Origin: an uncultured archaeon
Lineage (GTDB): Archaea > Thermoproteota > EX4484-205 > JAAOZP01
Assembly (NCBI GenBank): GCA_938045545.1
Contig: CALIBN010000023.1
Coordinates: 1 to 44,772, forward strand
Direction: 5' to 3'
Length of the DNA: 44,772 nucleotides
In this document: piece by piece, positions 27,083-38,728 of the stretch
Layout of the letters: the number at the start of each line of letters is the position of its first letter
Numbering within the stretch: position 1 is the stretch's first letter
The notes under the pieces: generated by a model
Database searches by the model: none
What the model was told of the DNA's origin: nothing
Seen by the model: only the letters and a program-made list of their open reading frames with translations
Made by a program: the position numbers and the translations under genes

Positions 27083-27734
27083 TCTCCATCACTATGTAGT
27101 ACTCGCCCTCCTCGAAAAGAATGTCGAAACCCGGTTCGGACAGTAGGAAGAGAATCAATATAAAGGTTCTAGCCATCTCCAATGGCTGTTTGCCTTCTAG
27201 CAGGGAGCTTAATGAAACTCTTCCCTCCAGGCTGAGCATCATGTAGATGGTGTTCCTGAACTCCTCGACCCTGCTCTCAATCTCTCTTATGAAATCATCC
27301 TGCTGGGGTACGATTGGTGGAAGCACCTCCTCCTCCGGAGCCCTTTTAGAGTAGGCCTTTTCCAGTATTTCCGAGAGAGCTTTTACTAGGCGTTCAAGAT
27401 CTATAACTGGCTGAGACGGCCTGATAGGAGCCTCGAGAGGGCTTATTTTCTCAAGCAGCTCCAGGGGAACATCCAGCGTCTCCTCTGAACTAAGAGCCTC
27501 CTTATGCTTAAGCTCAGAGTCTATTGAGAGAAGCACCTCGGTCTTTCTAAGATAGATTATTGAGGATGCTAGCAGCACTAGTCCGGATAGCGTGAACTGC
27601 AAATATCCCTTTTCACGCAGCTCACCGGATATTTGCTTCAGTATCCCTGCGATCTTAATATCCCAAGGGTTTACTCTCCTGAGTTTAATCAGGTCGAACA
27701 CTATATCCGTTGCTTTCCGTGACTCACTCGACAA
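27057..27734 (-). CDS. scpA: Kleisin ScpA
   Basis: NPWDIKI, SGLVLLASSIIYLRKTE and C-terminal TFILILFL wHTH. Lies between smc and scpB. Confidence 0.88.
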   Translation of the reverse strand: MSSESRKATDIVFDLIKLRRVNPWDIKIAGILKQISGELREKGYLQFTLSGLVLLASSIIYLRKTEVLLSIDSELKHKEALSSEETLDVPLELLEKISPLEAPIRPSQPVIDLERLVKALSEILEKAYSKRAPEEEVLPPIVPQQDDFIREIESRVEEFRNTIYMMLSLEGRVSLSSLLEGKQPLEMARTFILILFLLSEPGFDILFEEGEYYIVMENGFQGLGV

Positions 27735-30700
27735 CCGTTGTCTCCTCCAACGCTCTCCCCACAGGCATTTCTATGAACCTTGAGAAACCGTTCTTAACAT
27801 AGACTCCTATAACCTTGTCCGCCTTGCTTACAACGACATCTCTTAGGGAAACAATTATTATCTGACTTTCCTTTGAGACTTCTTTCAAAAGCTCCGTCAT
27901 CCTTTCAATGTTAACGTAATCTAGGTGTGCGTCAGGCTCGTCGAAAATGTAAAACGCCGCAGGGAAGAGTTTCTGCATAGCGAAAATCAGGCATAACGCT
28001 GCCACAGACTTCTCTCCTCCACTAACTCCGCTTATTATTCTCGCCTCTTTCCCTGGGAATCTAACGTATACTGTTAACCCGGCTTCGAAAGGCCTTTCAG
28101 GATCCTCGAGTTGAAGCCACCCGTCGCCGCCAGTCATCTTGTTGAAGAAGGTTGAGAAATAATTGTTTATCCTATTCAGCCCGTCTAGGAAAGCCTCCCT
28201 TTTTCTCCTTTCAATGTCATCCATGAATTCCTGGATGCTCCTCCTTTCTTCCTCAAGCTCGTTAATCCTTTCAAGAGCATTCCTGTAGAAATAAACCTCC
28301 TGCTCATACTGGTTGATTGCAAGCATGTTTACTTCTTGAACTTTCTCAAGCTCGCTCCTAAGTATATTCAAGTATTTTTCCGTAAAGCTTTCCTTATCCT
28401 CTGAAACTTTAAGAGGCTGGCCCGGAATCCTGCTTTTCAGCTCCCGAATCCTGTTTTCACTCATCTCTTTGTCAACCAGTAGCTTCCTCTCAACATCTTT
28501 AACCCTGTTTATCTCCGCATTCAACCCTTCAATCTCTCCGTCAAGTTTCCGGATTGTTGAAACCAAGTCCCTCCTCCTATCTTCCACGTCCTCGCGTATA
28601 ACCTCTATGTTTTCCCCAATCCTCCCCTTCAAATCTTCAATCCTCGCTTTTAAATCGCGAGTCAGGCTTAAAACCACTCTATTGTCTTCCCTAAACTTGG
28701 CGATCCTCTCGCTCAGGGTCTTCTCAGTATTCCTGTATTCCTCAGCCTTTCTATTTAGATTGCTGACGATGTTCTCGATCAAGGCTAGTCTGTTTTTTAA
28801 AGCCTCTCTCTTTTTCTCAAGCCCGTTCAACTCGTTTTCAATCAGCCTTATTCTCCTGCGAACCCTGCTGATACTTTTTTCCCTAACTACGATTAAAGAT
28901 TTTAACCTTGTCCTTTCCCTTTCCAAGAGACGTTTTTTACTCGCGTCACGTTTTCTGAACACTTGACCCAATCTTCGAGATGCTTCTAAATACTCGCTGG
29001 TCAAAGTGTCTAACTGTTCCCCCAGCTCCTCCATGCGAGAGTCAATGGTGTTCAGGTCCTCGGCAAGCCTGCTTCGAATACTCGCTGCCTCAACTATTTT
29101 ACTGTTTAAAACTGGCCTCACATGGTTATTCATGGCTTCAAGTATTCTGGCTAACTCGCCGGCTTTCTCGGAGAAGCTTTTCACAACGCTTCTAACGCTT
29201 TCAAGCTTCTCCTCAATATTCTCCCTTACCAGCCCTCCTTCAACGGTGAAAACCTCGCCGCTTATGGTTGCCGCCCTGAACCCTCTTCTAGCGAAGACGA
29301 GGGCGTCCTCGGTAGTGTTAACCACAACGCTATTCCAGAAAAGTTTTAAGACATGTTTCTCAATGCTCTTAGGATATTTGACTATATCCATCATATGCTT
29401 GCCACGCTTGGTGAGTTCAAGAGGTATTTCTTTCCTGTTTACCTCCCCCTCGGAGGTTAACACTTTAATCCCAATTCCTTTACCTCCAAGAAAGTTCATT
29501 AGGAAAAGCATGTCTAGAGAACCTTTAACGAGTACAGCATCCATCCAATCGCCAGCCAGGCTTTCAACAGCTCTACTCAATTCTTTTGGAAACCAAAGGC
29601 TTTCTCTTAGAATTCCGTAAATACTTAAGCTTTTTTTCTCCAAAATAGTTTTCGCAAGCTCTAGAACCCTCCTCCTTCTCTCATCCTGAACAGCGTAGCC
29701 CGCTATTCCGGAAACTTTTGCAAAAAGGATTCTGAACGAATCCAGACTACTCATTAAGATTTTAACTGTGTTCATTATTTCATCCAGCATCCTTCTCCTC
29801 TCCGCTAAAACTCTGTCAAGATCAGCCAGTTTCTCAACTACCCTGCTTTTTCTAACCGTCTCCATCTTCCTCCTCCTACTCAAAGACCCAATTCTCCTCT
29901 TTAGACTATCATAATAGGTAGCGACTTCTCTAAGCATTCTTTCCGAATTCTCCTCCTCAAGCATCAGCCGGTCTAAATCCCTGTTGACTAGGATCAGCCT
30001 ATTCATAATACTGGAAATCTCCGCTTCCTGTTGTTTCTCAACCTCTTGAAGCCTCTTCTTCTCGCTTAGAAGACGAAGTATCCGGGTGCTGATCGAAGAA
30101 CGTTTTACAAGCATGCGCCTATAATCCTCTGTCAGGCTGGCCGTTTTCCTAATGCTCTTACTCCTCTTCCGCCTAGTTTTCGACAATTCTTTTCTAACCG
30201 TGTTTAACTCACTCCTGTTTCTCTCAAGCCTTTCAAAAGCTTCTCCAAGCCTTTTCTCAAGGTCTTTTAACTCGTATTGGAGCCTAATTCTCTCCGCGTC
30301 AGGGGTTGCTGAAGCAGCGGTTTCCAAAAGCTCCTCCATTCTCTCTATAATGCTTCTCTTCTCCGCCTGTCTGGAGGCAAGCTCTGCTTCAAGCTTAGCT
30401 CGCAAAGCAGTATTTTCCTCTAGGCTTCGCGATATTTCCTCCAGTTTTCTGACAAGCCTCCAATACTCGAACGAATTGATAATCATCTGCATCCTCTCCA
30501 CTTCTTTCTCAAGCATTCTTCTCCTGAGCAGAATGTTTCTCTCTCTTTCTAATTGAAGCATTCTTCTATCGATCTCTTGAAGCCTAGCCTGTGCCACTCT
30601 GAGATTATTGTCGGCCTGCTGCAGGTTGCTGAGCGCCTCCGCCTTCCTCTCGTCGTACTGTGCTAAGCCTAGTGCCTGTTCTATCTCCTTTCTTCTCTCC

Positions 30701-31641
30701 ACGGGATTTTTATCAGCCAACCGTGAAATCTCTCCCTGCGGTATTATGTTGTAACCTCTTGCAGAAAGACCTGTTGAAGAGATTGTGTCTTCAACAACGT
30801 TTTTAGAGGTTCTTCTACCATTGAGATAATACGTGCTCTCCCCGTCCCTCCCCATTCTCCTAGCAACCGTTATAAGCTTCTCTTGCCCAGGTATTGTTGA
30901 GTCACTATTATCTATGGTTATTTTCACGTAGGTCTCCGCTTCCCTCCCTGCGTTATCATTGACCAGGGAGGAAAGCCTGTCTATCCGGAGAAGTCTAGGA
31001 TTGTTTTCACCGAGTGCGAAACGTATCGCGTCGATTAAATTACTGTTGTGAACTATCACACCATCCCCTGTAACGTATGAGCCGATGTTCTCAACATATA
31101 TGTCGTATACTTCTCCTCTCCAAACATTCCTAACGATCCTGTTTAAAACATCAAGGCTTGTTTTCCCCTCGTCAATAACAATTATCTTCATGCCTTCTGA
31201 GAGCCTTGAAGCCTCAATCCACCTATGTGCCCCCTTCCCGTCGGCCACCATCAGCCTGTGTTCCGGGGTTACCTCAATCTTTCTGCCATTTTCTGTTTCA
31301 ATTTTTAACACTAATCCCTCGTAGGGTCTCCTGAAAATTGCGCTAACACCGGCTTCAACGCTCCTACCTAGAAGCGTTTGATAGCTTATGAGCGGCTCCC
31401 TTTCAAGGGGAATCACGTATTCCCCGTCCACCAGCTTGATTCTAACACCCTCAGAAGACGCCTCCTTGAAAAGAGATTCTACAGCCAGTCCTCCCCACGG
31501 CCGTTCTATGATTGTCCAAGGGGCTACGCATTTTCCAGAGCCGTTTCTACCTGTTAAAACAGTTAAGCCTCTGCTCAGGTTTATAACCTGTCGGCCGCCT
31601 ACCGATTTGAAATTCCTGATTTCAATCCTTGTCAAATGCAA
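27724..31641 (-). CDS. smc: Chromosome segregation protein SMC, intein-containing
   Basis: NFKS, GRNGSGK|SN, PQG Q-loop, long coiled coils, a divergent hinge, VNMLAI, SGGEKS and FDEPDAHLD. Confidence 0.95.
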   Translation of the reverse strand: MHLTRIEIRNFKSVGGRQVINLSRGLTVLTGRNGSGKCVAPWTIIERPWGGLAVESLFKEASSEGVRIKLVDGEYVIPLEREPLISYQTLLGRSVEAGVSAIFRRPYEGLVLKIETENGRKIEVTPEHRLMVADGKGAHRWIEASRLSEGMKIIVIDEGKTSLDVLNRIVRNVWRGEVYDIYVENIGSYVTGDGVIVHNSNLIDAIRFALGENNPRLLRIDRLSSLVNDNAGREAETYVKITIDNSDSTIPGQEKLITVARRMGRDGESTYYLNGRRTSKNVVEDTISSTGLSARGYNIIPQGEISRLADKNPVERRKEIEQALGLAQYDERKAEALSNLQQADNNLRVAQARLQEIDRRMLQLERERNILLRRRMLEKEVERMQMIINSFEYWRLVRKLEEISRSLEENTALRAKLEAELASRQAEKRSIIERMEELLETAASATPDAERIRLQYELKDLEKRLGEAFERLERNRSELNTVRKELSKTRRKRSKSIRKTASLTEDYRRMLVKRSSISTRILRLLSEKKRLQEVEKQQEAEISSIMNRLILVNRDLDRLMLEEENSERMLREVATYYDSLKRRIGSLSRRRKMETVRKSRVVEKLADLDRVLAERRRMLDEIMNTVKILMSSLDSFRILFAKVSGIAGYAVQDERRRRVLELAKTILEKKSLSIYGILRESLWFPKELSRAVESLAGDWMDAVLVKGSLDMLFLMNFLGGKGIGIKVLTSEGEVNRKEIPLELTKRGKHMMDIVKYPKSIEKHVLKLFWNSVVVNTTEDALVFARRGFRAATISGEVFTVEGGLVRENIEEKLESVRSVVKSFSEKAGELARILEAMNNHVRPVLNSKIVEAASIRSRLAEDLNTIDSRMEELGEQLDTLTSEYLEASRRLGQVFRKRDASKKRLLERERTRLKSLIVVREKSISRVRRRIRLIENELNGLEKKREALKNRLALIENIVSNLNRKAEEYRNTEKTLSERIAKFREDNRVVLSLTRDLKARIEDLKGRIGENIEVIREDVEDRRRDLVSTIRKLDGEIEGLNAEINRVKDVERKLLVDKEMSENRIRELKSRIPGQPLKVSEDKESFTEKYLNILRSELEKVQEVNMLAINQYEQEVYFYRNALERINELEEERRSIQEFMDDIERRKREAFLDGLNRINNYFSTFFNKMTGGDGWLQLEDPERPFEAGLTVYVRFPGKEARIISGVSGGEKSVAALCLIFAMQKLFPAAFYIFDEPDAHLDYVNIERMTELLKEVSKESQIIIVSLRDVVVSKADKVIGVYVKNGFSRFIEMPVGRALEETTVVE
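31045..31530 (-). mobile_element. Mini-intein (162 aa, no homing endonuclease) in the SMC Walker A
   Basis: Block A CVAPWT after GSGK, block B VTPEH, block F VYDIYVE and block G IVHN followed by Ser+1. Excision restores GSGKSNLIDAI. Confidence 0.93.
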
Positions 31642-32218: not shown

Positions 32219-32511
32219 AAAGCATTTCTAAGGAACGCTACGTAATAGTTTACCCACAGTATTTTGACTCTAGGGCCTCGCGAAAAATGGGGAGGCGGGT
32301 GCCAAAGGGTCTTGCTGTTGATTCTCCAAGCCTGGCTAGGGTTGAGGAAGCATGTCGAAAGCTCGGCTTAAAGATCATTGTGGAACCCGACAAGGCTTAT
32401 CCGAGGGTGAGCAATGTTAAGTGTGGGCGAATAGTAGTTTTCTGCAAGGATATGCGGAAGAAGAGTGTTATTGAAAAAATCGGGAGGGCCATGAAGGGTG
32501 GTGCCGGATGA
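32215..32511 (+). CDS. srp19: Signal recognition particle 19 kDa protein
   Basis: VYPQYFDSRASRKMGRRVPK, KAYPR and GRIVV motifs. Confidence 0.95.
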   Translation: MKSISKERYVIVYPQYFDSRASRKMGRRVPKGLAVDSPSLARVEEACRKLGLKIIVEPDKAYPRVSNVKCGRIVVFCKDMRKKSVIEKIGRAMKGGAG

Positions 32512-32741
32512 AACGTAAAGGGACTGTTGAAAACATTCTTAACAACAGGATTGCTTTAGTTAGGCTGGAGGGACTAGTTGGCTTAGGCTCCCTCGTCTTA
32601 AGCAGGGAAATGAGGCCGATAGGCAGCGTTACAGACATAATAGGTCCAGTTAAAGAGCCCTATGCCGTGGTGGTTTTAAAAAGAAACGTCAAGAAAGTTG
32701 GGAAAGGCGAGGTCGTGTTTTTTAAGCCCAGAAAAGCCTGA
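32508..32741 (+). CDS. gar1: H/ACA RNP protein Gar1 (integration target)
   Basis: IGSVTDIIGPVKEPYAVV motif and rps8e-srp19-gar1 order. Its last codons form attL. Confidence 0.9.
   Translation: MKRKGTVENILNNRIALVRLEGLVGLGSLVLSREMRPIGSVTDIIGPVKEPYAVVVLKRNVKKVGKGEVVFFKPRKA
32721..32737 (+). repeat. attL core TTTAAGCCCAGAAAAGC
   Basis: Identical to 38236-38252. Confidence 0.92.
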
Positions 32742-32775
32742 GAAGGAGAAATCTCCCCGATAACCTTCTTTTTTT
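32741..32775 (+). terminator. Element-supplied putative terminator for the rps8e-srp19-gar1 transcript
   Basis: AGAAGG 32741-46 / CCTTCT 32764-69 stem followed by a T7 run, immediately after the gar1 stop. Confidence 0.5.
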
Positions 32776-32812
32776 CTATAACAATTTAAGCTAGTGCGAA
32801 CAATAGTGGAGC

Positions 32813-33154
32813 ATGCGAGAACAATTTCTCAGATGGGCGTTGAAGAAACACCTGGAGGCTCAAGGCTTCAAAGTTCAGTATGGAAGGATCAGGATCGGAA
32901 ACTTTGAAATCGATGGAGAAGCAACCGACCAGAATGGAACCAGAATGGCGATAGAAATCAAGACGGAGCATGACGATGTATGCCGTGGAATAGGACAGCT
33001 GGCGGAAGCATTAGCATACGGATACAACCAGGCTACCCTAGTTACAACCCTCAGGAAAGCCAGAAAGCTAAATGGGAGGGTCTTCGAAAAATTTCGAATT
33101 CGATTAATCGGGATAGACGGAAGGGGCAACGTTTACGAGTTGCTTGAATTTTAA
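32813..33154 (+). CDS. Small stand-alone PD-(D/E)xK nuclease-fold protein
   Basis: E...L..QGF...EIDG...AIEIK...GIGQL, a restriction-endonuclease-like D-ExK-Q arrangement. Confidence 0.7.
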   Translation: MREQFLRWALKKHLEAQGFKVQYGRIRIGNFEIDGEATDQNGTRMAIEIKTEHDDVCRGIGQLAEALAYGYNQATLVTTLRKARKLNGRVFEKFRIRLIGIDGRGNVYELLEF

Positions 33155-33480
33155 TTCAACCTGGAGCCAAGGCTAGCCCTACCTAAACAGGCTTTCCCAA
33201 CCATTAGCAACAATTAACCAAACATGCTTAACCACCACTAACGAAATCCAGCTTTAAGCTATCGAATGTTGAATTTTATTATTTCTACTGCTTAAGATGA
33301 ATAGTAAGCCTGCTTATGCCTCTTATCAGGGCTTGTTGGCTTAGGGCTTTTCCTTTGCTACGAGTATGGTGTGTTTAAGCCGGTTTAGTTATTTTTGTCT
33401 TTTATTAACAGGTTGAGTTGTCGGATTTTTGTCAAATGTTAACAGGCGTTAACAAATGCCAATTGGGGTTAAGCTCTATC

Positions 33481-33678
33481 CTATATCAGGTATGCCTGGT
33501 TATCGAGTTTAATGCCCAATGCCAGTAATGCTAAATCTAGTTTTGCGAGGATTTCTACTTGTGTTTTTCTATATTCATTCACCAGGTTGATGAGGGCCTC
33601 GAGCTCTTTCCTAGCCTTGTTCTCGCCTTTCTCTGACAATTTGATTCCACTCTCGTTCGAGTTCAAGTTTCTTACCAA
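33481..33678 (-). CDS. Small helical hypothetical protein (element)
   Basis: Amphipathic ARKELEALINLVNEYRKTQVEILAKLDLALLALGIK. Overlaps the upstream gene; the start may be TTG ~33639. Confidence 0.55.
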   Translation of the reverse strand: MVRNLNSNESGIKLSEKGENKARKELEALINLVNEYRKTQVEILAKLDLALLALGIKLDNQAYLI

Positions 33679-34009
33679 TCAGCTTTTCTAGTTCGCTTTT
33701 TACTGGCTTTTTGACCCTAATTGCCTCTTCCCACAAATCTTTAAATTGAATCTGAAGGGTTGAAGGGTTTAATTCAGGCAGGATCTTGCCGGCTCTTTCG
33801 GCTTCAACTCGTTCTTTTACTCTTTGGCGGATCTTTTGAGCCTCCTTCTCCTCAATTAAGCGTTTCATTTCCAAAAGCTCTTCTAAGGAATAGGCCTCAA
33901 GAGGCTTCTCAGGTGGCTCTGGAGCAGGCTGAGGCTCTTTTATGCCTAGGGCTCGCTTCAAGTCGGCTATCGCTTCTTTAACCTGTTCAAGCTCTCGTAA
34001 TACGCTCAT
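33611..34009 (-). CDS. Coiled-coil hypothetical protein (element)
   Basis: E/K-rich helices with a Pro-rich linker. ATG 34009 lies ~25 nt after a TTTTATA box on the minus strand. Confidence 0.7.
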   Translation of the reverse strand: MSVLRELEQVKEAIADLKRALGIKEPQPAPEPPEKPLEAYSLEELLEMKRLIEEKEAQKIRQRVKERVEAERAGKILPELNPSTLQIQFKDLWEEAIRVKKPVKSELEKLIGKKLELEREWNQIVRERREQG

Positions 34010-34107
34010 GAAACTTATGAGCCGGCTGAAGTATAAAACCTTTTGCTCTTCAAGTTGCTCAAGTGCGGGGATCTTTTTACAATTGAACCTAGCTTTTTTC
34101 TTCAAAT

Positions 34108-34320
34108 ATGCCTAGTCAGAAAAGCTTTAAGAATTCTCTCCAGGTGGATTGGATCATGGTTAGAAACAAGAAATTGGTGAGCGTGGAGAAGGCTTTCCCA
34201 ATGGGCATTCCTCCAGCTGTTAAACGAGAGATAACCAGCTTAAGGATTTCAGGCAGAAGGGACGGCCGGCATGTTGTTATTGGATCTGGCGGAAGGGTCT
34301 TTGTAAAGATGCGTGAATGA
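34108..34320 (+). CDS. Small basic hypothetical protein (element)
   Basis: ORF only; the start may be the internal ATG (MVRNKK). Confidence 0.45.
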   Translation: MPSQKSFKNSLQVDWIMVRNKKLVSVEKAFPMGIPPAVKREITSLRISGRRDGRHVVIGSGGRVFVKMRE

Positions 34321-34321
34321 G

Positions 34322-34351
34322 GTTTATAAACAAAAATGCAAGTTTATAAAC
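34322..34351. promoter_or_regulatory. Twin palindromes GTTTATAAAC, candidate operator
   Basis: Perfect 10-bp palindrome at 34322-34331 and 34342-34351, upstream of the AbrB-Rep-integrase operon. Confidence 0.5.
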
Positions 34352-34418
34352 ACATCGAATTATGACTATTTAGATATAAAATTTAAGTATAAATACCTCC
34401 TCTTGCAAGATTTCAACC

Positions 34419-34619
34419 ATGAACAGGCAACACGGTAGGAGGATCCTGATACGGAGGAGCTGGCGGGTAGTAGGCAATACTGTAGGAATAATTATCCCTA
34501 AAAGCTTCATGGAGGAATTAAGCCTGGAACCTGGCACGTTCTTCAGGGCTAGTCTTGAAAATGGTAAAATCGTCTTTGAGCCTTTAAAACTCGAACCTAA
34601 GGAGGTGGAAGAAGTGTGA
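34419..34619 (+). CDS. AbrB/MazE/SpoVT-family DNA-binding protein
   Basis: VGNTVGIIIPKSFMEELSLEPG...LENGKIVFEP swapped-hairpin signature. Confidence 0.88.
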   Translation: MNRQHGRRILIRRSWRVVGNTVGIIIPKSFMEELSLEPGTFFRASLENGKIVFEPLKLEPKEVEEV

Positions 34620-34870
34620 GCCGTAGCGACCCACACCCCTCCCTCCTCTCTTGCCCAGTAGAAGAGGATAAAGGGCGGTATATAAACATTCGCATAGAGT
34701 TAGCCTTCCTGATTCGCTATAACAATAAGCTCGCTAAGCTGTCTCTAGGAGACTGGTTAAAACCGGAAAAAGTCGGGAAGCTGGCTGAGAGGCTAGGCGT
34801 TGATCCCAAACTTCTGTTTCTCAGGCTTTCTGAGGCGTTGACGGACTTAGAGAAGGTGGTGAAAAGTTGA
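34616..34870 (+). CDS. Hypothetical protein, possible HTH (element)
   Basis: GGAGGTG RBS, GTGA and TTGA overlaps with both neighbours, KVGKLAERLGVDPKLL. Confidence 0.65.
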   Translation: MSRSDPHPSLLSCPVEEDKGRYINIRIELAFLIRYNNKLAKLSLGDWLKPEKVGKLAERLGVDPKLLFLRLSEALTDLEKVVKS

Positions 34871-36834
34871 GCAAGCCGGTTTACGAGTTGGAGAGGCTAA
34901 AGCAAGCTCAAAAATTCTTAGCGAGCGAAGAAGAGCGAGAAGAAAAGAGATTGAAAATAAGCAGGGTTGTTTTCAAGGACTTAGGTTCTTTCTTAATTCA
35001 GCAAGTTTGGAATAACGGCCCCAAGCTTCTTGTTTGGGATAAGGTTCAGAAACAAGTTTTGGATGTAAGAGAAGAATTCGAATATGATGGTGTTCGCTAC
35101 AAGCCCTTCGTTAAAATTCCGCTCAAGAGGAACGGCGAGCCAGCTATAGGCCTAGCCTCCTATCCTATGGACTACGGTTCTGAAAGAGAATTGATAAGCG
35201 AGGTCAAGGCTTTCATTCAAAAGTATTGCGAGCTGGAGCCGTCTTCTCTAGAATTTCTTTCTCGCTTTGTTCTCCACACCTGGATTTACGACTTTAACGA
35301 TTACGCGATCTACGTCTTTCTGCACGGCTTAATAGGGGTAGGAAAGACAAGGGTCGCTAAAATCCTATCGCTAGTTTGTTACAACTCGCTCTTTGTTAGC
35401 GGAAACACCAGTTTCTCGGCTTATAAAAGATTGATCTCCAGGTTCAGGGGGACTTTACTCATTAATGAGTTTGAGCCTAGAAATGATGACGACTCTGATG
35501 AAATTATTGCTTGGCTGAACAACGGGTTTGAAAAAGATAATCCTTTCGCACTCAGCAGAAAGAATGACCCAGAGAAACAGGATTTCTATGATTCATTCGG
35601 CCCAAAGGTTTTCACAACTAGGAGGCTGGTTGAGAACTCATCTCTGCTTTCGAGAGCGGTTCTTATCGAGATGCATGAAGCTAGCAGGAAGGATATTCCA
35701 GTCAAGCTAGGTAGGGAGGCTTATCTCCAGGCAGCACTTCTGAGAAACAAGCTTTTAATGTTCAGACTTAAGCACTATCATGATAGCTACGAATTAAGCC
35801 CAGAGCTAGATGAGAGACTCAGAAATGATTCCAACATTCCCCCCAGATTTAAACAGCAGGCCTTGCCTATGCTAACACTCTATGAAATCGCTGGCTTAAA
35901 CGTTGAAGAAGCTTTCGACTTCTACCACAAGCTTGGCCAAGAGTTTAAGAAGAGGGTTGCGACCACTACCTTAGAAGGAATCCTATTCAACGCTATCCTA
36001 GAAATCTGCCACCAGGATTCTTATGATGAAGAGTTTCTCGGCTTCATAGATGAAAATAAAAAGCTGGTAGGGGTTGGACTTAAGTTGCTCCAGAAGAGGG
36101 TTGACCTGTCCCAGCGGTTAATAGCGAAAACCCTTCAAAGAATTGGAATGGTTTCAGAGAAACGGAAGAAACCTGTTTTAATTTGGGACAAGGAGATAAA
36201 CAGTCCGGTTGTTAAAGATAGGACTTTAAGACTGTGGGTCTTTCCTAACGAAAAAGCATGGAGAGAGGCTTTCGAGAGATATTTTTATCAAGAGGATTCC
36301 AACCCAGGGAAAGACTTCTCCATAATACCTGAAGTCTTAAAGTCTTTAGTCTTCATGCCGGAGCCTAAGCCTAACGCTCTAACCCTTTCTGAACTAGGTG
36401 GCGCTAGTGGCGCTGGTGGCGTTTCTAGGAACAGGTATGAAAGTGGAGGCTCGAGTAACTTGACTGTGCCTACAAGTGCCACTTGTGCCACTTGTGCCAC
36501 CAACCAGAGTATTCTACCATTGGAAAATAATGAAACGTCTCAAGGATCGGTAGGAGAAACAGCCGAAAAACATAATGAAGATAGCCTTCTAAAGCCTGTT
36601 AACCCTATGGAAACAACCCCTTTAAACACTGGTTTCCAGGTTGAGCCTAAGCGTAATGCTACCCCTCACTCCGAGAACAATTATTTTCAAGGAGATCCTA
36701 GCATGGAGCATAGTAGCGTTCTTTATGCTTGTAAATCATGCTTGTCGGATCTGGAGGCCAAAGGGCAAGTTGTTGAAGCATGTGAAAAATGGGTGCAAAA
36801 GTGTGAGATATGCGGGGAAGTAGCTAGAGGTTAG
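34867..36834 (+). CDS. Rep-like P-loop ATPase/helicase with a C-terminal Zn finger
   Basis: GLIGVGKT Walker A, LLINEFE Walker B-like, GPKVFTT, LLSR arginine-finger-like motif, wHTH-like segment (LSQRLIAKTLQRIG) and terminal CKSC...CEIC. Confidence 0.7.
   Translation: MSKPVYELERLKQAQKFLASEEEREEKRLKISRVVFKDLGSFLIQQVWNNGPKLLVWDKVQKQVLDVREEFEYDGVRYKPFVKIPLKRNGEPAIGLASYPMDYGSERELISEVKAFIQKYCELEPSSLEFLSRFVLHTWIYDFNDYAIYVFLHGLIGVGKTRVAKILSLVCYNSLFVSGNTSFSAYKRLISRFRGTLLINEFEPRNDDDSDEIIAWLNNGFEKDNPFALSRKNDPEKQDFYDSFGPKVFTTRRLVENSSLLSRAVLIEMHEASRKDIPVKLGREAYLQAALLRNKLLMFRLKHYHDSYELSPELDERLRNDSNIPPRFKQQALPMLTLYEIAGLNVEEAFDFYHKLGQEFKKRVATTTLEGILFNAILEICHQDSYDEEFLGFIDENKKLVGVGLKLLQKRVDLSQRLIAKTLQRIGMVSEKRKKPVLIWDKEINSPVVKDRTLRLWVFPNEKAWREAFERYFYQEDSNPGKDFSIIPEVLKSLVFMPEPKPNALTLSELGGASGAGGVSRNRYESGGSSNLTVPTSATCATCATNQSILPLENNETSQGSVGETAEKHNEDSLLKPVNPMETTPLNTGFQVEPKRNATPHSENNYFQGDPSMEHSSVLYACKSCLSDLEAKGQVVEACEKWVQKCEICGEVARG
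36398..36500. repeat. Inverted arrays of 9-bp iterons inside the rep gene (putative ori)
   Basis: GTGGC x3 at 36398/36407/36416 faces GCCAC x3 ending at 36482/36491/36500. Confidence 0.7.
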
Positions 36835-36840
36835 ATTAGC

Positions 36841-38160
36841 ATGACTACCTGCCCTTTCTGCGGATCTTCGCTTGTTTTTAAGGCTGGTTTCAGAACAACT
36901 AGGACAGGTGAAAGAGTTCAGAGGTTTTTATGTAGGGTCTGTCTTAGACGTTTTTCTCTTAACTCTCAAATAAAGTCCGATATCGCTCTCAAGAACGCTG
37001 AAATGTCTGACCCGGCTGAGAACCTGGCCGAGTGCTTTCGCGTTAACTCTTTCACCTCTAAGCCAGCTTTCGAGGATTCTCCTCTCCCTTTCAGTAAAGA
37101 TGTAGCTCCTCATAATACTCCTATGACAGGAGAACATTTATATACCTTTGCCTCCCATGATAATAGTAGCAGGGAGGGAGAAGAACTCCCTGCTGGAGAA
37201 GTGGAGATGAGCAGCTCGGAGGGAGCTGTGACGAGCAGTATCCTGCTCCAGAAACCGGGGACTGGACAGGATAAGGAACTCGAAGGCAAACTAATAGGCT
37301 TCGCATGGTGGCTTAAGAAGCAGGGTAAGGCCGATGCGACGATTAAGAACTACGTTGCGATGCTCCGTCTATTGGTTAAGAACAACGCTAACCTTGAGGA
37401 TCCTGAGAGCGTTAAAGATGTTCTAGCCAAGGCAAATAAAAGCGATGGCTGGAAGGTTCTGGCGGTAAAGGCCTACAGCTCGTTTCTAAGCCTGATGGGT
37501 AAGACGTGGATCCCTCCTAAGGTTAAGGCGACTAGGCCCTTGCCCTTCATACCCATGGAGAAGGAGCTTGACGACTTGATAGCTGGCTGCGGCCCTAGGA
37601 CTTCAACACTGCTTCAGCTGCTTAAAGAGACCGGCATGAGGATAGGCGAGGCCCTAAGGCTGGCCTGGAAAGACATTGACTTGGAGAGAAGAGTAATAAT
37701 CCTGAATGAACCAGAGAAGAACTCTAACCCCAGGATCTTCAGGATAAGCCCCAAACTCGTAGGAATGCTTAACACGCTTCCTAAGACAAACGAAAGGATA
37801 TTTCCAACGGCTTACAACGTGATTAAGGCGAATTTCGAGGCTCAACGAAAGAGGCTGGCGAGGAAGCTTAACAACCCTAGGCTTCAAAACATAACCTTTC
37901 ACACCTTCAGGCATTGGAAGGCCACGATGGAGTATCACAAGACTAAAGACATCCTGCATGTCAAAGAGCTTCTCGGCCACAAGGATATTGAGAACACGAT
38001 GCTCTACATTCAGGTTGAGAAGGCCCTTTTCAACGAGGATAGCTCAGAGTTCACCGTTAAAGTCGCTAAAACACCGGAAGAGATTCAGAGCTTACTTGAG
38101 GCAGGCTTCGAATACGTTTGCGAGAAAGACGATCTAATGTTCTTCAGGAAGCGTAAATAG
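36841..38160 (+). CDS. Tyrosine recombinase/integrase with an N-terminal Zn ribbon
   Basis: CPFCGS...VQRFLCRVC; catalytic R (TGMR), K (EPEK), HxxR (HTFR), H (LGH) and Y (TMLY). Intact and next to attR. Confidence 0.95.
   Translation: MTTCPFCGSSLVFKAGFRTTRTGERVQRFLCRVCLRRFSLNSQIKSDIALKNAEMSDPAENLAECFRVNSFTSKPAFEDSPLPFSKDVAPHNTPMTGEHLYTFASHDNSSREGEELPAGEVEMSSSEGAVTSSILLQKPGTGQDKELEGKLIGFAWWLKKQGKADATIKNYVAMLRLLVKNNANLEDPESVKDVLAKANKSDGWKVLAVKAYSSFLSLMGKTWIPPKVKATRPLPFIPMEKELDDLIAGCGPRTSTLLQLLKETGMRIGEALRLAWKDIDLERRVIILNEPEKNSNPRIFRISPKLVGMLNTLPKTNERIFPTAYNVIKANFEAQRKRLARKLNNPRLQNITFHTFRHWKATMEYHKTKDILHVKELLGHKDIENTMLYIQVEKALFNEDSSEFTVKVAKTPEEIQSLLEAGFEYVCEKDDLMFFRKRK
36928..37113 (-). CDS. Putative nested antisense gene (61 aa, basic, helical) within the integrase linker
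   Basis: MRSYIFTERERRILESWLRGERVNAKALGQVLSRVRHFSVLESDIGLYLRVKRK. TATATAAA box at 37144-37137, 24 nt before the ATG, with GGAG upstream. Confidence 0.6.
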   Translation of the reverse strand: MRSYIFTERERRILESWLRGERVNAKALGQVLSRVRHFSVLESDIGLYLRVKRKTSKTDPT

Positions 38161-38205
38161 ATGCCTAAAAAGCCTTTCCTTACGGCTTAAATCCAGCCTA
38201 GAGAT

Positions 38206-38259
38206 GCATTATGCTTTTCTGCTCTAAAATATGTCTTTAAGCCCAGAAAAGCATAGTGC
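38206..38259. repeat. 16-bp inverted repeat (15/16) spanning attR
   Basis: GCATTATGCTTTTCTG 38206-21 versus CAGAAAAGCATAGTGC 38244-59. The single mismatch is a G-T/G-U pair. Confidence 0.85.
38236..38252 (+). repeat. attR core, the displaced original 3' end of gar1
   Basis: Reads TTT AAG CCC AGA AAA GCA TAG = FKPRKA-stop, the same peptide as at attL. Confidence 0.92.
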
Positions 38260-38314
38260 TCGGAAAACCTTTATAGCTTGGAAACGCTACTGTTAAAGTG
38301 GTGATAAAGCCTCG

Positions 38315-38728
38315 GTGGTCAGAAAGGTCTCGAGAAGATACAGGCTTGAGGGAAAGGTCCTTAACATCATAATGCGTTCCAAGGACGGCGTGGTTCAGAC
38401 AGACCTATACAAGATGCTTAACATATCGAGCAGAGAGGGGTCGAGAATCTGCTTGAAACTGGAGTCATGGGGGCTGATAAAGAGGGAGAAGGTTCTTCAC
38501 AAGGAGAGATGGACCTATAAGCTCTACTCGACGCGAAAGGTTCCAAAGATAGATTCGTTGAAGGGTTCACCATGCTTTGCATGCCAGTATTTCAACAGGA
38601 GTTGTTCACCAGGATCTGCAATAAGCCCTGAACGTTGCGAACTACTGGATAAGTGGATACTTACGATCGGCGTGGGGGGAGCGGATGCTGAAGTCAAAGA
38701 GGCGGTGGCTTCAAGAGAGGAAGCGTGA
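38315..38728 (+). CDS. Archaeal Rpc34 homologue / TFE-beta (wHTH + Fe-S cluster domain)
   Basis: wHTH (GVVQTDLYKMLNISSREGSRICLKLESWGLIKREK) plus PCFAC...C...PERC..L..W. It has its own GGAAAA-CCTTTATA promoter at ~38262-38275. Confidence 0.8.
   Translation: MVRKVSRRYRLEGKVLNIIMRSKDGVVQTDLYKMLNISSREGSRICLKLESWGLIKREKVLHKERWTYKLYSTRKVPKIDSLKGSPCFACQYFNRSCSPGSAISPERCELLDKWILTIGVGGADAEVKEAVASREEA

Follow-up and report, generated by a model that had tools for sequence, protein, structure and literature searches.

A target-matched inverted repeat beside the integrase gene of a mobile, gar1-inserting archaeal element: a candidate accessory integrase-binding site

Why would a mobile element carry, right behind its own integrase gene, a near-perfect complement of bases that belong to its host? 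The question is raised by a 44,772-nt stretch of DNA from an uncultured archaeon (GenBank assembly GCA_938045545.1, contig CALIBN010000023.1, positions 1 to 44,772; hereafter the window), in which a 5.5-kb integrative element is inserted in gar1, the gene for an H/ACA ribonucleoprotein (RNP) protein. Shortly after the stop codon of the element's tyrosine integrase, GCATTATGCTTTTCTG (38206-38221) is the reverse complement of 38244-38259 at 15/16 positions, the sole mismatch being a T opposite a G. Nine of the 16 target bases are inside the direct repeat that flanks the element and the last seven, ATAGTGC, are outside it. This match, including its G-U-compatible exception, had been proposed in an initial annotation of the window and was confirmed at the same positions. 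Scanning for inverted pairs with 16-nt arms, at least 15 matches and a spacer of 3-40 nt returned this pair only in the whole window; 10 block shuffles gave no such pair. The inverted repeat is genuine and not a chance match. The arms are also longer than first described: the left one belongs to a 24-nt quasi-palindrome (38206-38229) that is complementary to 38236-38259 at 20/24 positions, and the gap between the two 24-nt arms is 6 nt (TATGTC). The spacer of 22 nt given previously results from stopping at 16 nt.

To decide what is host and what is element, the boundaries have to be known. The insert is flanked by a 17-nt direct repeat, TTTAAGCCCAGAAAAGC, with one copy at the left attachment (att) site, attL (32721-32737), and the other at attR (38236-38252); the attL copy follows from the two joints described below (32720 to 38236, and 38235 back to 32721), each of which leaves 17 nt that fit both sides, and the attR copy from repeat comparison and from the empty-site and circle joints. 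The element body, delimited from its open reading frames (ORFs), Pfam and PHROGs matches and word depth, spans 32738-38235 (plus strand), and the element repeat unit is 5,515 bp with one direct repeat included. Beyond the repeat, the sequence reads CTGAGAA at attL and ATAGTGC at attR. The target gene gar1 (32508-32741, plus strand; ORF, Pfam Gar1 PF04410, E=5e-7) is kept open by the insertion, as element DNA rebuilds its last codons and stop (…KPRKA, GCC TGA) and the original end (GCA TAG) is displaced to attR. Orthologues of the locus were found in 15/16 sister genomes, and seven of these genomes have an empty gar1 site (G009, G012, G007, G002, G008, G010 and G003). G009 and G012 read ...AGAAAAGCatagtgctcgg..., i.e. 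…AGAAAAGC-atagtgctcgg…, and the other five carry their own variants (atagctc, atagggatc, gtagggt, ataggat and gtgaaaa). ATAGTGC is host sequence, as the initial annotation held, and does not belong to the element: it stands in the empty sister sites and in a 56-kb contig that lacks the insert.

This contig comes from sequencing run X1. It is 56,094 nt long, has a depth of 33.9 and joins 32720 to 38236 without differences, which is the empty site (attB); the same joint is present in runs X4 and X11. A second contig from X1, of 660 nt and depth 5.3, joins 38235 back to 32721. This joint stems from an excised circle or possibly from a tandem copy, either of which gives the same joint. Since the integrated form of the window, the empty site and the circle-type joint together provide attL, attR, attB and attP, the element is mobile. 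Moreover, the feature moves along with the element, as it is present in the circle-junction contig. The claim that the element matches attB and attR better than its own attP holds in the sense that a near-perfect complement of host-only bases is carried by the element itself. Word depth in X1 is 1-6 inside the element and about 34 in the flanks, and the element seems to be carried by a minority of the genomes in this population and to be partly excised, with the empty site dominating.

The enzyme that would act on these sites is a tyrosine integrase of 439 aa (36841-38160, plus strand). Pfam PF00589 matches aa 241-394 with 75.4 bits against a cut-off of 27.1 (E=6e-21), and the PHROGs match is phrog_1, integrase (E=5e-32). 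The closest solved structures by sequence are those of the archaeal XerA, 4a8e and 5hxy. The R, HxxR, H and Y motifs align to P. abyssi XerA (4a8e) as GMRIGE/GLRVSE, HTFRHW/HQLRHS and LLGH…MLY/LLGH…QIY, in which we presume the assignment of the catalytic residues within XerA. Three segments can be told apart: an N-terminal, zinc-ribbon-like CxxC…CxxC segment, the Xer-like core-binding and catalytic part (aa 151-397), and a C-terminal tail ending in FFRKRK.

Xer enzymes use half-sites placed around a 6-bp spacer. We read the sites of the element as 14-nt units and compared their inner ten bases, which gives the layout P2 (14), 6 bp, P1 (14), a 6-bp overlap AGCCCA, and B' (14, inverted), with P' and B as the corresponding sites at attL. 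P2, the proposed accessory integrase half-site (GCATTATGCTTTTC; 38206-38219, plus strand), matches the reverse complement of B' at 13/14 positions and at 10/10 of the inner bases, both reading TATGCTTTTC. P1, the proposed element-side core half-site (38226-38239, plus strand), lies 20 nt downstream of P2; its inner ten, TATGTCTTTA, match P2 at 7/10. The putative overlap, or strand-exchange region, AGCCCA (38240-38245) would lie between P1 and the host half-site B' (GAAAAGCATAGTGC; 38246-38259, minus strand), as read from the empty sites and the empty-site contig. The host-only bases of B' are 38253-38259 (ATAGTGC) and include the original gar1 stop TAG. At attL, the reverse complement of P' (CAGGCTTTTC) matches P2 at 8/10 and B (GTGTTTTTTA) at 4/10. 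The core dyad of the window is formed by P1 and the reverse complement of B', with 7/10 around AGCCCA; B reaches only 4-5/10. The local alignment score of P2 was reached by 0/500 shuffles, and the proposed overlap agrees with the element/host differences at attL and attR of a related element at the same site (G016).

We consider it probable, with considerable doubt left, that P2 is an accessory integrase-binding site in the attP region of a small mobile element that inserts into gar1. The 75 nt after the integrase stop would then be the P arm of attP, and the 16-mer the core of P2, a third integrase-binding half-site, oriented like P1 and placed 20 bp, or two helical turns, upstream of it, where the family usually has its upstream copy. 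Two integrase subunits, bound at P2 and P1, would lie on one face of the P arm, and extra subunits at P2 could cooperate with the one bound at P1 in building the attP or attR complex. The host B' would be the matching high-affinity half-site across the overlap and P2 its best element-borne copy, with P1, P' and B as weaker variants (7, 8 and 4 of 10). As is usual for core sites, the arms of element and host would be inverted repeats that share a consensus, here with one copy more. The complement of host-only bases would then follow: because B' lies mostly outside the 17-bp identity, any element copy of the preferred half-site must complement host-only bases.

The relatives of the integrase offer a comparison. 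Species-representative genomes contain 409 of them and metagenome contigs at least 588, and the best 80 of each set were fetched (160 loci). The hosts of the family are Bathyarchaeia and Brockarchaeota. Many paralogues occur in the genus of the window, and the same genome holds four further copies or fragments. At least two more complete elements are seen in that genome, G000:C12 (about 110.6-121.5 kb; 10.8 kb long, att repeat of 17 nt) and G000:C11 (about 43.5-53.0 kb; 9.5 kb, att repeat of 13 nt; C11 below), along with two further integrase copies on the short contigs G000:C13 and G000:C46. The dominant feature across the fetched flanks is an imperfect direct repeat with a period of 20-21 nt just after the integrase stop. 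In the first 110 nt after the stop, the best direct-repeat offset is 20 or 21 nt in 37/79 unique genome flanks against 25/395 shuffles, and in 26/60 further metagenome flanks against 18/300 shuffles.

Attachment sites were mapped in eight elements (the window, G000:C12, G000:C11, L039, L096, L111, L115 and L177), a set selected by the presence of enough upstream DNA and of an exact 12-13 nt repeat, which most of the 160 loci lack. In seven of the eight, 21-39 nt separate the integrase stop from the start of the att repeat; in the window it is 75 nt. The downstream copy of the phased repeat is the left end of the att repeat in 5/6 related elements (L039, L096, L115, G000:C12 and G000:C11), and the repeated sequence varies from element to element, matching its own target (e.g. 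tRNA 5' ends). A P-arm copy of a host half-site beats shuffles in 6/8 mapped elements: in four it resembles B/P1 (at most 3/500 shuffles), in the same sense as the core and imperfectly, and in two, the window and C11, it resembles B', reaching 7 and 14 host-only nt (0/500 shuffles). Comparing ungapped 16-mers of the P arm with the reverse complement of B' singles out the same two elements, at 12/16 each with a non-cognate maximum of 9, and C12, L039, L096, L111 and L115 are at background. Additionally, the unmapped, tRNA-targeting L090, L057/L062 and L040 have an arm close to the stop whose inverted partner follows 33-41 nt downstream.

C11 is the second element with the geometry of the window. 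It is inserted at the 3' end of a different protein gene, G006 and G009 have the empty site that confirms its att site, and it too follows a 14-6-14-6-14 arrangement, with P2 at +4, P1 at +24, the spacer CGGTTC and then B'. Its P2 matches the reverse complement of B' at 12/14 positions, including 9/11 host-only positions, and P1 at only 7/14. In the attB of C11, the inverted 8-bp arms match perfectly and enclose a 6-bp spacer.

On the other side of the element, GGAGAAATCTCCCC (32745-32758), a small palindrome (GGAGA/TCTCC) with a C-rich segment and then a run of T behind it, is conserved on the attL side of related elements. The motif is found to the right of the repeat in the window, G000:C12, G000:C11, L039, L096, L111, L115, L177, G006 and G016, and stands 8-16 nt from the att repeat in all mapped elements, whatever their target. 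Its conservation at attL thereby validates the att sites of the mapped elements. This P'-arm motif is a candidate for an arm-type or a regulatory site, and the zinc-ribbon-like segment at the N-terminus of the integrase might bind it. A search for att repeats anchored on the motif among the fetched loci recovered only L039, L096 and L115 again, and a 16-nt repeat considered as the att site of L116 was dropped, its attL side being devoid of the motif. Degenerate attR patterns gave no match in viral or metagenome contigs. Among the best 80 of at least 588 metagenome relatives no integrase exceeds 56-60% identity; therefore, these contigs supply no further gar1-type elements in which the co-variation of P2 and B' could be followed.

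Two decayed elements at the same gar1 site, in G006 and G016, do allow a closer look at the left arm. Both have a homologous left arm and core, and a P2/P1 pair at the same spacing. In G006 the distance from stop to att is 33 nt, and the window carries an extra 42 nt. The G006 integrase remnant has about 83% protein identity to that of the window, and the host flanks have 97-98% DNA identity, which suggests that the G006 element was acquired separately; if so, the left arm belongs to the mobile element. Read as reverse complements, the outer parts of the arms of the three gar1 elements are ATAATGC, ATACTGG and ATAGTGG. Two further observations concern pieces of these arms. Within the extra 42-nt part of the window, GGCTTAAA (38184-38191) is perfectly complementary to the opening 8 nt of the att repeat (TTTAAGCC, 38236-38243). 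At L022 (G008:C1), a decayed integrase tail is followed by about 25 nt shared with window positions 38189-38213 (…CCAGCC.TAGAGA.GCATTATG) and, about 55 nt further on, by a diverged core-like GGCCCAGAA…ATAG. This may be the remnant of a gar1-type element at a secondary site.

Several points weigh against an accessory integrase-binding site. The half-sites, the binding of the integrase and the position of strand exchange are read from sequence alone. L111 and L177 (2/8 mapped elements) have no significant P-arm copy, and within the window the direct similarity of P2 to P1 is modest (13/20). The flanks of the family are not enriched in an inverted half-site 4-10 nt after P1 (4/38 flanks at 8/10, against 16/380 controls), and inverted-repeat offsets show no sharp peak. 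Given both results, we make no claim of dyad symmetry for the whole family. One of the element/host differences of G006 falls inside the proposed overlap, as a single mismatch. In G016 the left arm is closer to the ATAGTG type of host than to its own, which has ATAGGG, so that there the arm does not track the current host. Finally, the match of P2 to the reverse complement of B' extends over 16 nt, and more weakly over 24, which exceeds the 10-nt stretch common to the other half-sites. A match of this length could mean that the host arm was copied, or that pairing was under selection.

Copying from the host arm is the strongest competitor. An ancestor of the element, while integrated, could have had its P2/host-arm quasi-palindrome corrected by intramolecular template switching, or could have captured a piece of attB, so that host-only bases were copied into the element and the extended match has no function beyond that of a pre-existing P2. 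The extension of the match from the 10 nt common to all half-sites to 13/14 and 20/24 speaks for such a mutational relic, as do the three gar1 elements, which differ at different outer positions as expected for drift from an ancestral ATAGTG(C/G), and the G016 arm, which matches a host type other than its own. However, C11 at another target independently has a P2 that is closest to the reverse complement of B' (12/14, with 9/11 host-only positions), and the same is probably true of the tRNA-targeting L090 (12/14) and of L057/L062 (11/14). Moreover, it is the copy of the demonstrably mobile element that is best preserved (15/16), and those of the two decayed elements are worse. We consider a neutral origin unlikely as an account of the repeat as a whole, yet a serious rival for the extended part of the match.

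Selection for pairing could take the form of an RNA hairpin that senses the state of the element. An integrase transcript running through the att site would form the 16-bp stem only when the element is integrated, and the stem would alter mRNA stability or read-through into the host operon of a helix-turn-helix (HTH) gene and rlmE, a retroregulation like that of lambda sib, as the initial annotation had suggested. The predicted energies agree with this: as RNA the hairpin has -24.8 kcal/mol in attR and -12.1 in the inferred attP (-13.9 and -7.8 kcal/mol, respectively, as DNA), the fold has a z-score of -4.7, 0/200 shuffles are as stable, and the single mismatch is G-U compatible. In the circle (attP) form the outer 7 nt are unpaired. 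The difference in stability nevertheless follows automatically from the relation of P2 to B', and a significant complement reaching host-only bases is found in only 2/8 mapped elements. Transcription termination in archaea needs no hairpins, and transcripts could stop at a TTTT run within the left arm, before the right arm is made. On balance, we hold a state-sensing hairpin to be improbable.

More generally, the complement of host bases might have been selected for base pairing and not only for protein binding, which we think very improbable. P2, as part of the 3' end of the integrase mRNA or of unwound DNA, could pair with the B' strand and help to select or hold the target, or the P2/B' hairpin, complete only after integration, could report the integrated state to the element. 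If either version were true, the recurrence in C11 would mean that this tyrosine integrase family, widespread in Bathyarchaeia, generally uses a nucleic-acid-assisted step.

Another form of pairing would be a guide, in which an RNA or single-stranded DNA containing the 16-mer pairs with the target, by analogy to the bridge RNAs of IS110. The initial annotation had suggested this and had predicted that homologues at other targets would keep conserved stems around a variable, target-matched loop. Part of this stands: the segment after the stop changes with the target across the family, and it complements host-only bases in the window and in C11. The conserved stems do not, as no stems or RNA scaffold were seen in the homologous flanks, and Rfam gave no match in 38161-38260. 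At a permissive threshold (37900-38500), two weak snoRNA-like (small nucleolar RNA) hits fell inside the integrase gene and were set aside as chance matches. With a P arm of only 21-39 nt in 7/8 mapped elements, there is little room for a scaffold. The segment keeps a fixed distance of 20-21 nt from P1, which is a helical-phase feature of DNA. Its match is usually imperfect (12/14 or 10/13, for example), and in 4/8 mapped elements it runs in the same sense as the core. The predicted folds do not leave the 16-mer free either. It had been described as looped out by a TAGAG/CTCTA stem, but the minimum-energy folds lack this stem, whether for the integrated form or for the inferred excised one, and in each of them the 16-mer region pairs with the core. 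The hairpin AAGCC/GGCTT (38170-38188, plus strand) was correctly recognized in the sequence and lies in 42 nt (38161-38202) that the G006 copy lacks, but it is outside the predicted minimum-energy folds, which prefer GGCT/AGCC at 38184-38198. Furthermore, the enzyme retains a Xer-like DNA core-binding domain. The likeness to IS110 (PMC11208158), in the accessible part of that paper, is that a target-matching segment adjoins the recombinase gene; the enzyme here is a tyrosine recombinase, of a class other than the IS110 recombinases, and no structured RNA, two-loop layout or donor guide was found. In our reading, DNA half-sites account for the match. Among the matches listed for bridge RNA and tyrosine recombinases, no paper title reported an RNA-guided tyrosine recombinase. 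We regard the RNA guide as the least supported model and as exceedingly improbable, and a reprogrammable tyrosine integrase is not supported. Scarcely credible, lastly, is a folded single-stranded substrate in the manner of integron attC or CTX attP, which was also among the initial suggestions: the 24-nt arms with their 6-nt loop and internal mismatches can fold as DNA, but the stem duplex would comprise the overlap and B' only and not two half-sites, its outer 7 nt cannot pair in the circle, Pfam and PHROGs revealed no rolling-circle Rep among the element ORFs, and ordinary double-stranded attL, attR, attB and attP were all observed.

An accessory binding site for the integrase is, on the other hand, familiar from other recombination systems. 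The third symmetry element of the yeast 2-micron FRT site and DR1/DR2 of integron attI1 are accessory recombinase-binding repeats beside a simple core. The element shares with them an extra copy of a core-type half-site, in direct orientation, beside a core of half-site, spacer and half-site, with no separate arm consensus. It differs in that the extra copy is 20-21 bp away instead of adjacent and is closer to the host B' than to its own P1, and in that the enzyme has an N-terminal zinc-ribbon-like segment and a C-terminal tail; binding to the site is in our case predicted from sequence. Compared to archaeal XerA and dif, the domains are Xer-like, the catalytic motifs can be aligned and the half-sites flank a 6-bp spacer (a perfect 8-6-8 in the attB of C11). 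Here, however, the enzyme is the integrase of a mobile element and not a chromosome dimer resolvase, with added N- and C-terminal segments, a third half-site and, at gar1, an asymmetric attB.

Phage lambda provides another comparison. Its attP, according to the accessible text of an archaeal recombinase review (PMC8371274), combines core sites C/C' and B/B', a 7-bp overlap and arm-type sites. Both systems have a complex, asymmetric attP and a minimal attB, and in both the core sites are imperfect inverted repeats, so that element DNA complements host-only bases in attR; the target-independent P' motif GGAGAAATCTCCCC could act as an arm-type site. Unlike P2, which is core-like and changes with the target, the arm sites of lambda have a consensus that is not related to the core, and a distinct N-terminal domain recognizes them. 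No analogue of Xis or IHF was identified for the element, and its att sites, in the 3' end of a protein gene, are identical over 17 bp. As far as the accessible part of the same review goes, archaeal att sites need nucleotides outside the attB/attP identity, and the core inverted repeats need not coincide with it (PMC8371274). The need for bases outside the identity is what the relation between B' and P2 implies. Elements with short att sites in Thaumarchaeota are similar in size and location of these sites: the consulted part of their description gives a median att of 17 bp, as here, and insertion in 3'-distal parts of protein genes as well as in tRNA genes (PMC6563490). Their hosts differ from the Brockarchaeota and Bathyarchaeia considered here, and that part describes no repeat architecture of the P arm (PMC6563490). 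We found no paper joining Bathyarchaeota, integrase and attP, although the supplementary tables of PMC6563490 and PMC8371274 may bear on novelty. The large integrase family has apparently not been described in print.

The remaining content of the window gives the setting of the element. The host DNA is an archaeal chromosome, and the closest named relatives of the contigs of its genes are metagenome-assembled genomes labelled Brockarchaeota and Bathyarchaeia. By ORFs and Pfam, the left flank contains genes for ribosomal protein S8e, SRP19 and Gar1, and the right flank a MarR-like HTH gene, rlmE/FtsJ and trm1. Directly 3' of the att site, and left intact by integration, is a stretch resembling a B recognition element (BRE) and TATA box, GAAAAC…TTTATA (38263-38275, plus strand), which is conserved across the genus and presumably serves as the promoter of the HTH-rlmE genes. 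This stretch, cggaaaacctttatagc, is unchanged in the empty sites of G009, G012, G007 and G002 and shows small changes in G008, G010 and G003. The element has seven ORFs, including those for an AbrB/MazE-like protein, a 655-aa protein and the integrase; Pfam and PHROGs gave no function for the ORFs of 655, 164, 113, 84 and 70 aa. The 655-aa ORF (34867-36834, plus strand), which has a GxxGxGKT motif and a Cys-rich C-terminus and no match in either database, probably encodes the replication or maintenance protein of the element. Elsewhere in the window, an SMC-like gene (27724-31641, minus strand; 1,305 aa) appears to have an intein-like insert right after its N-terminal GxxGSGK (…GSGK-C…VHN-SN…), as judged from the translation.

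What, then, does the complement of host bases tell us about this family? Most likely, the repeat reflects a classical protein-DNA architecture with a family-specific twist and not a new targeting principle. The useful results are the directly observed mobility of the element and the attP layout of its family, in which a target-matched third half-site would stand two helical turns from the core, together with the P' motif. Such a layout would amount to a sequence rule that predicts att sites and the bases that determine specificity, including those outside the attB/attP identity, which the archaeal recombinase review, in its accessible part, flags as open (PMC8371274).

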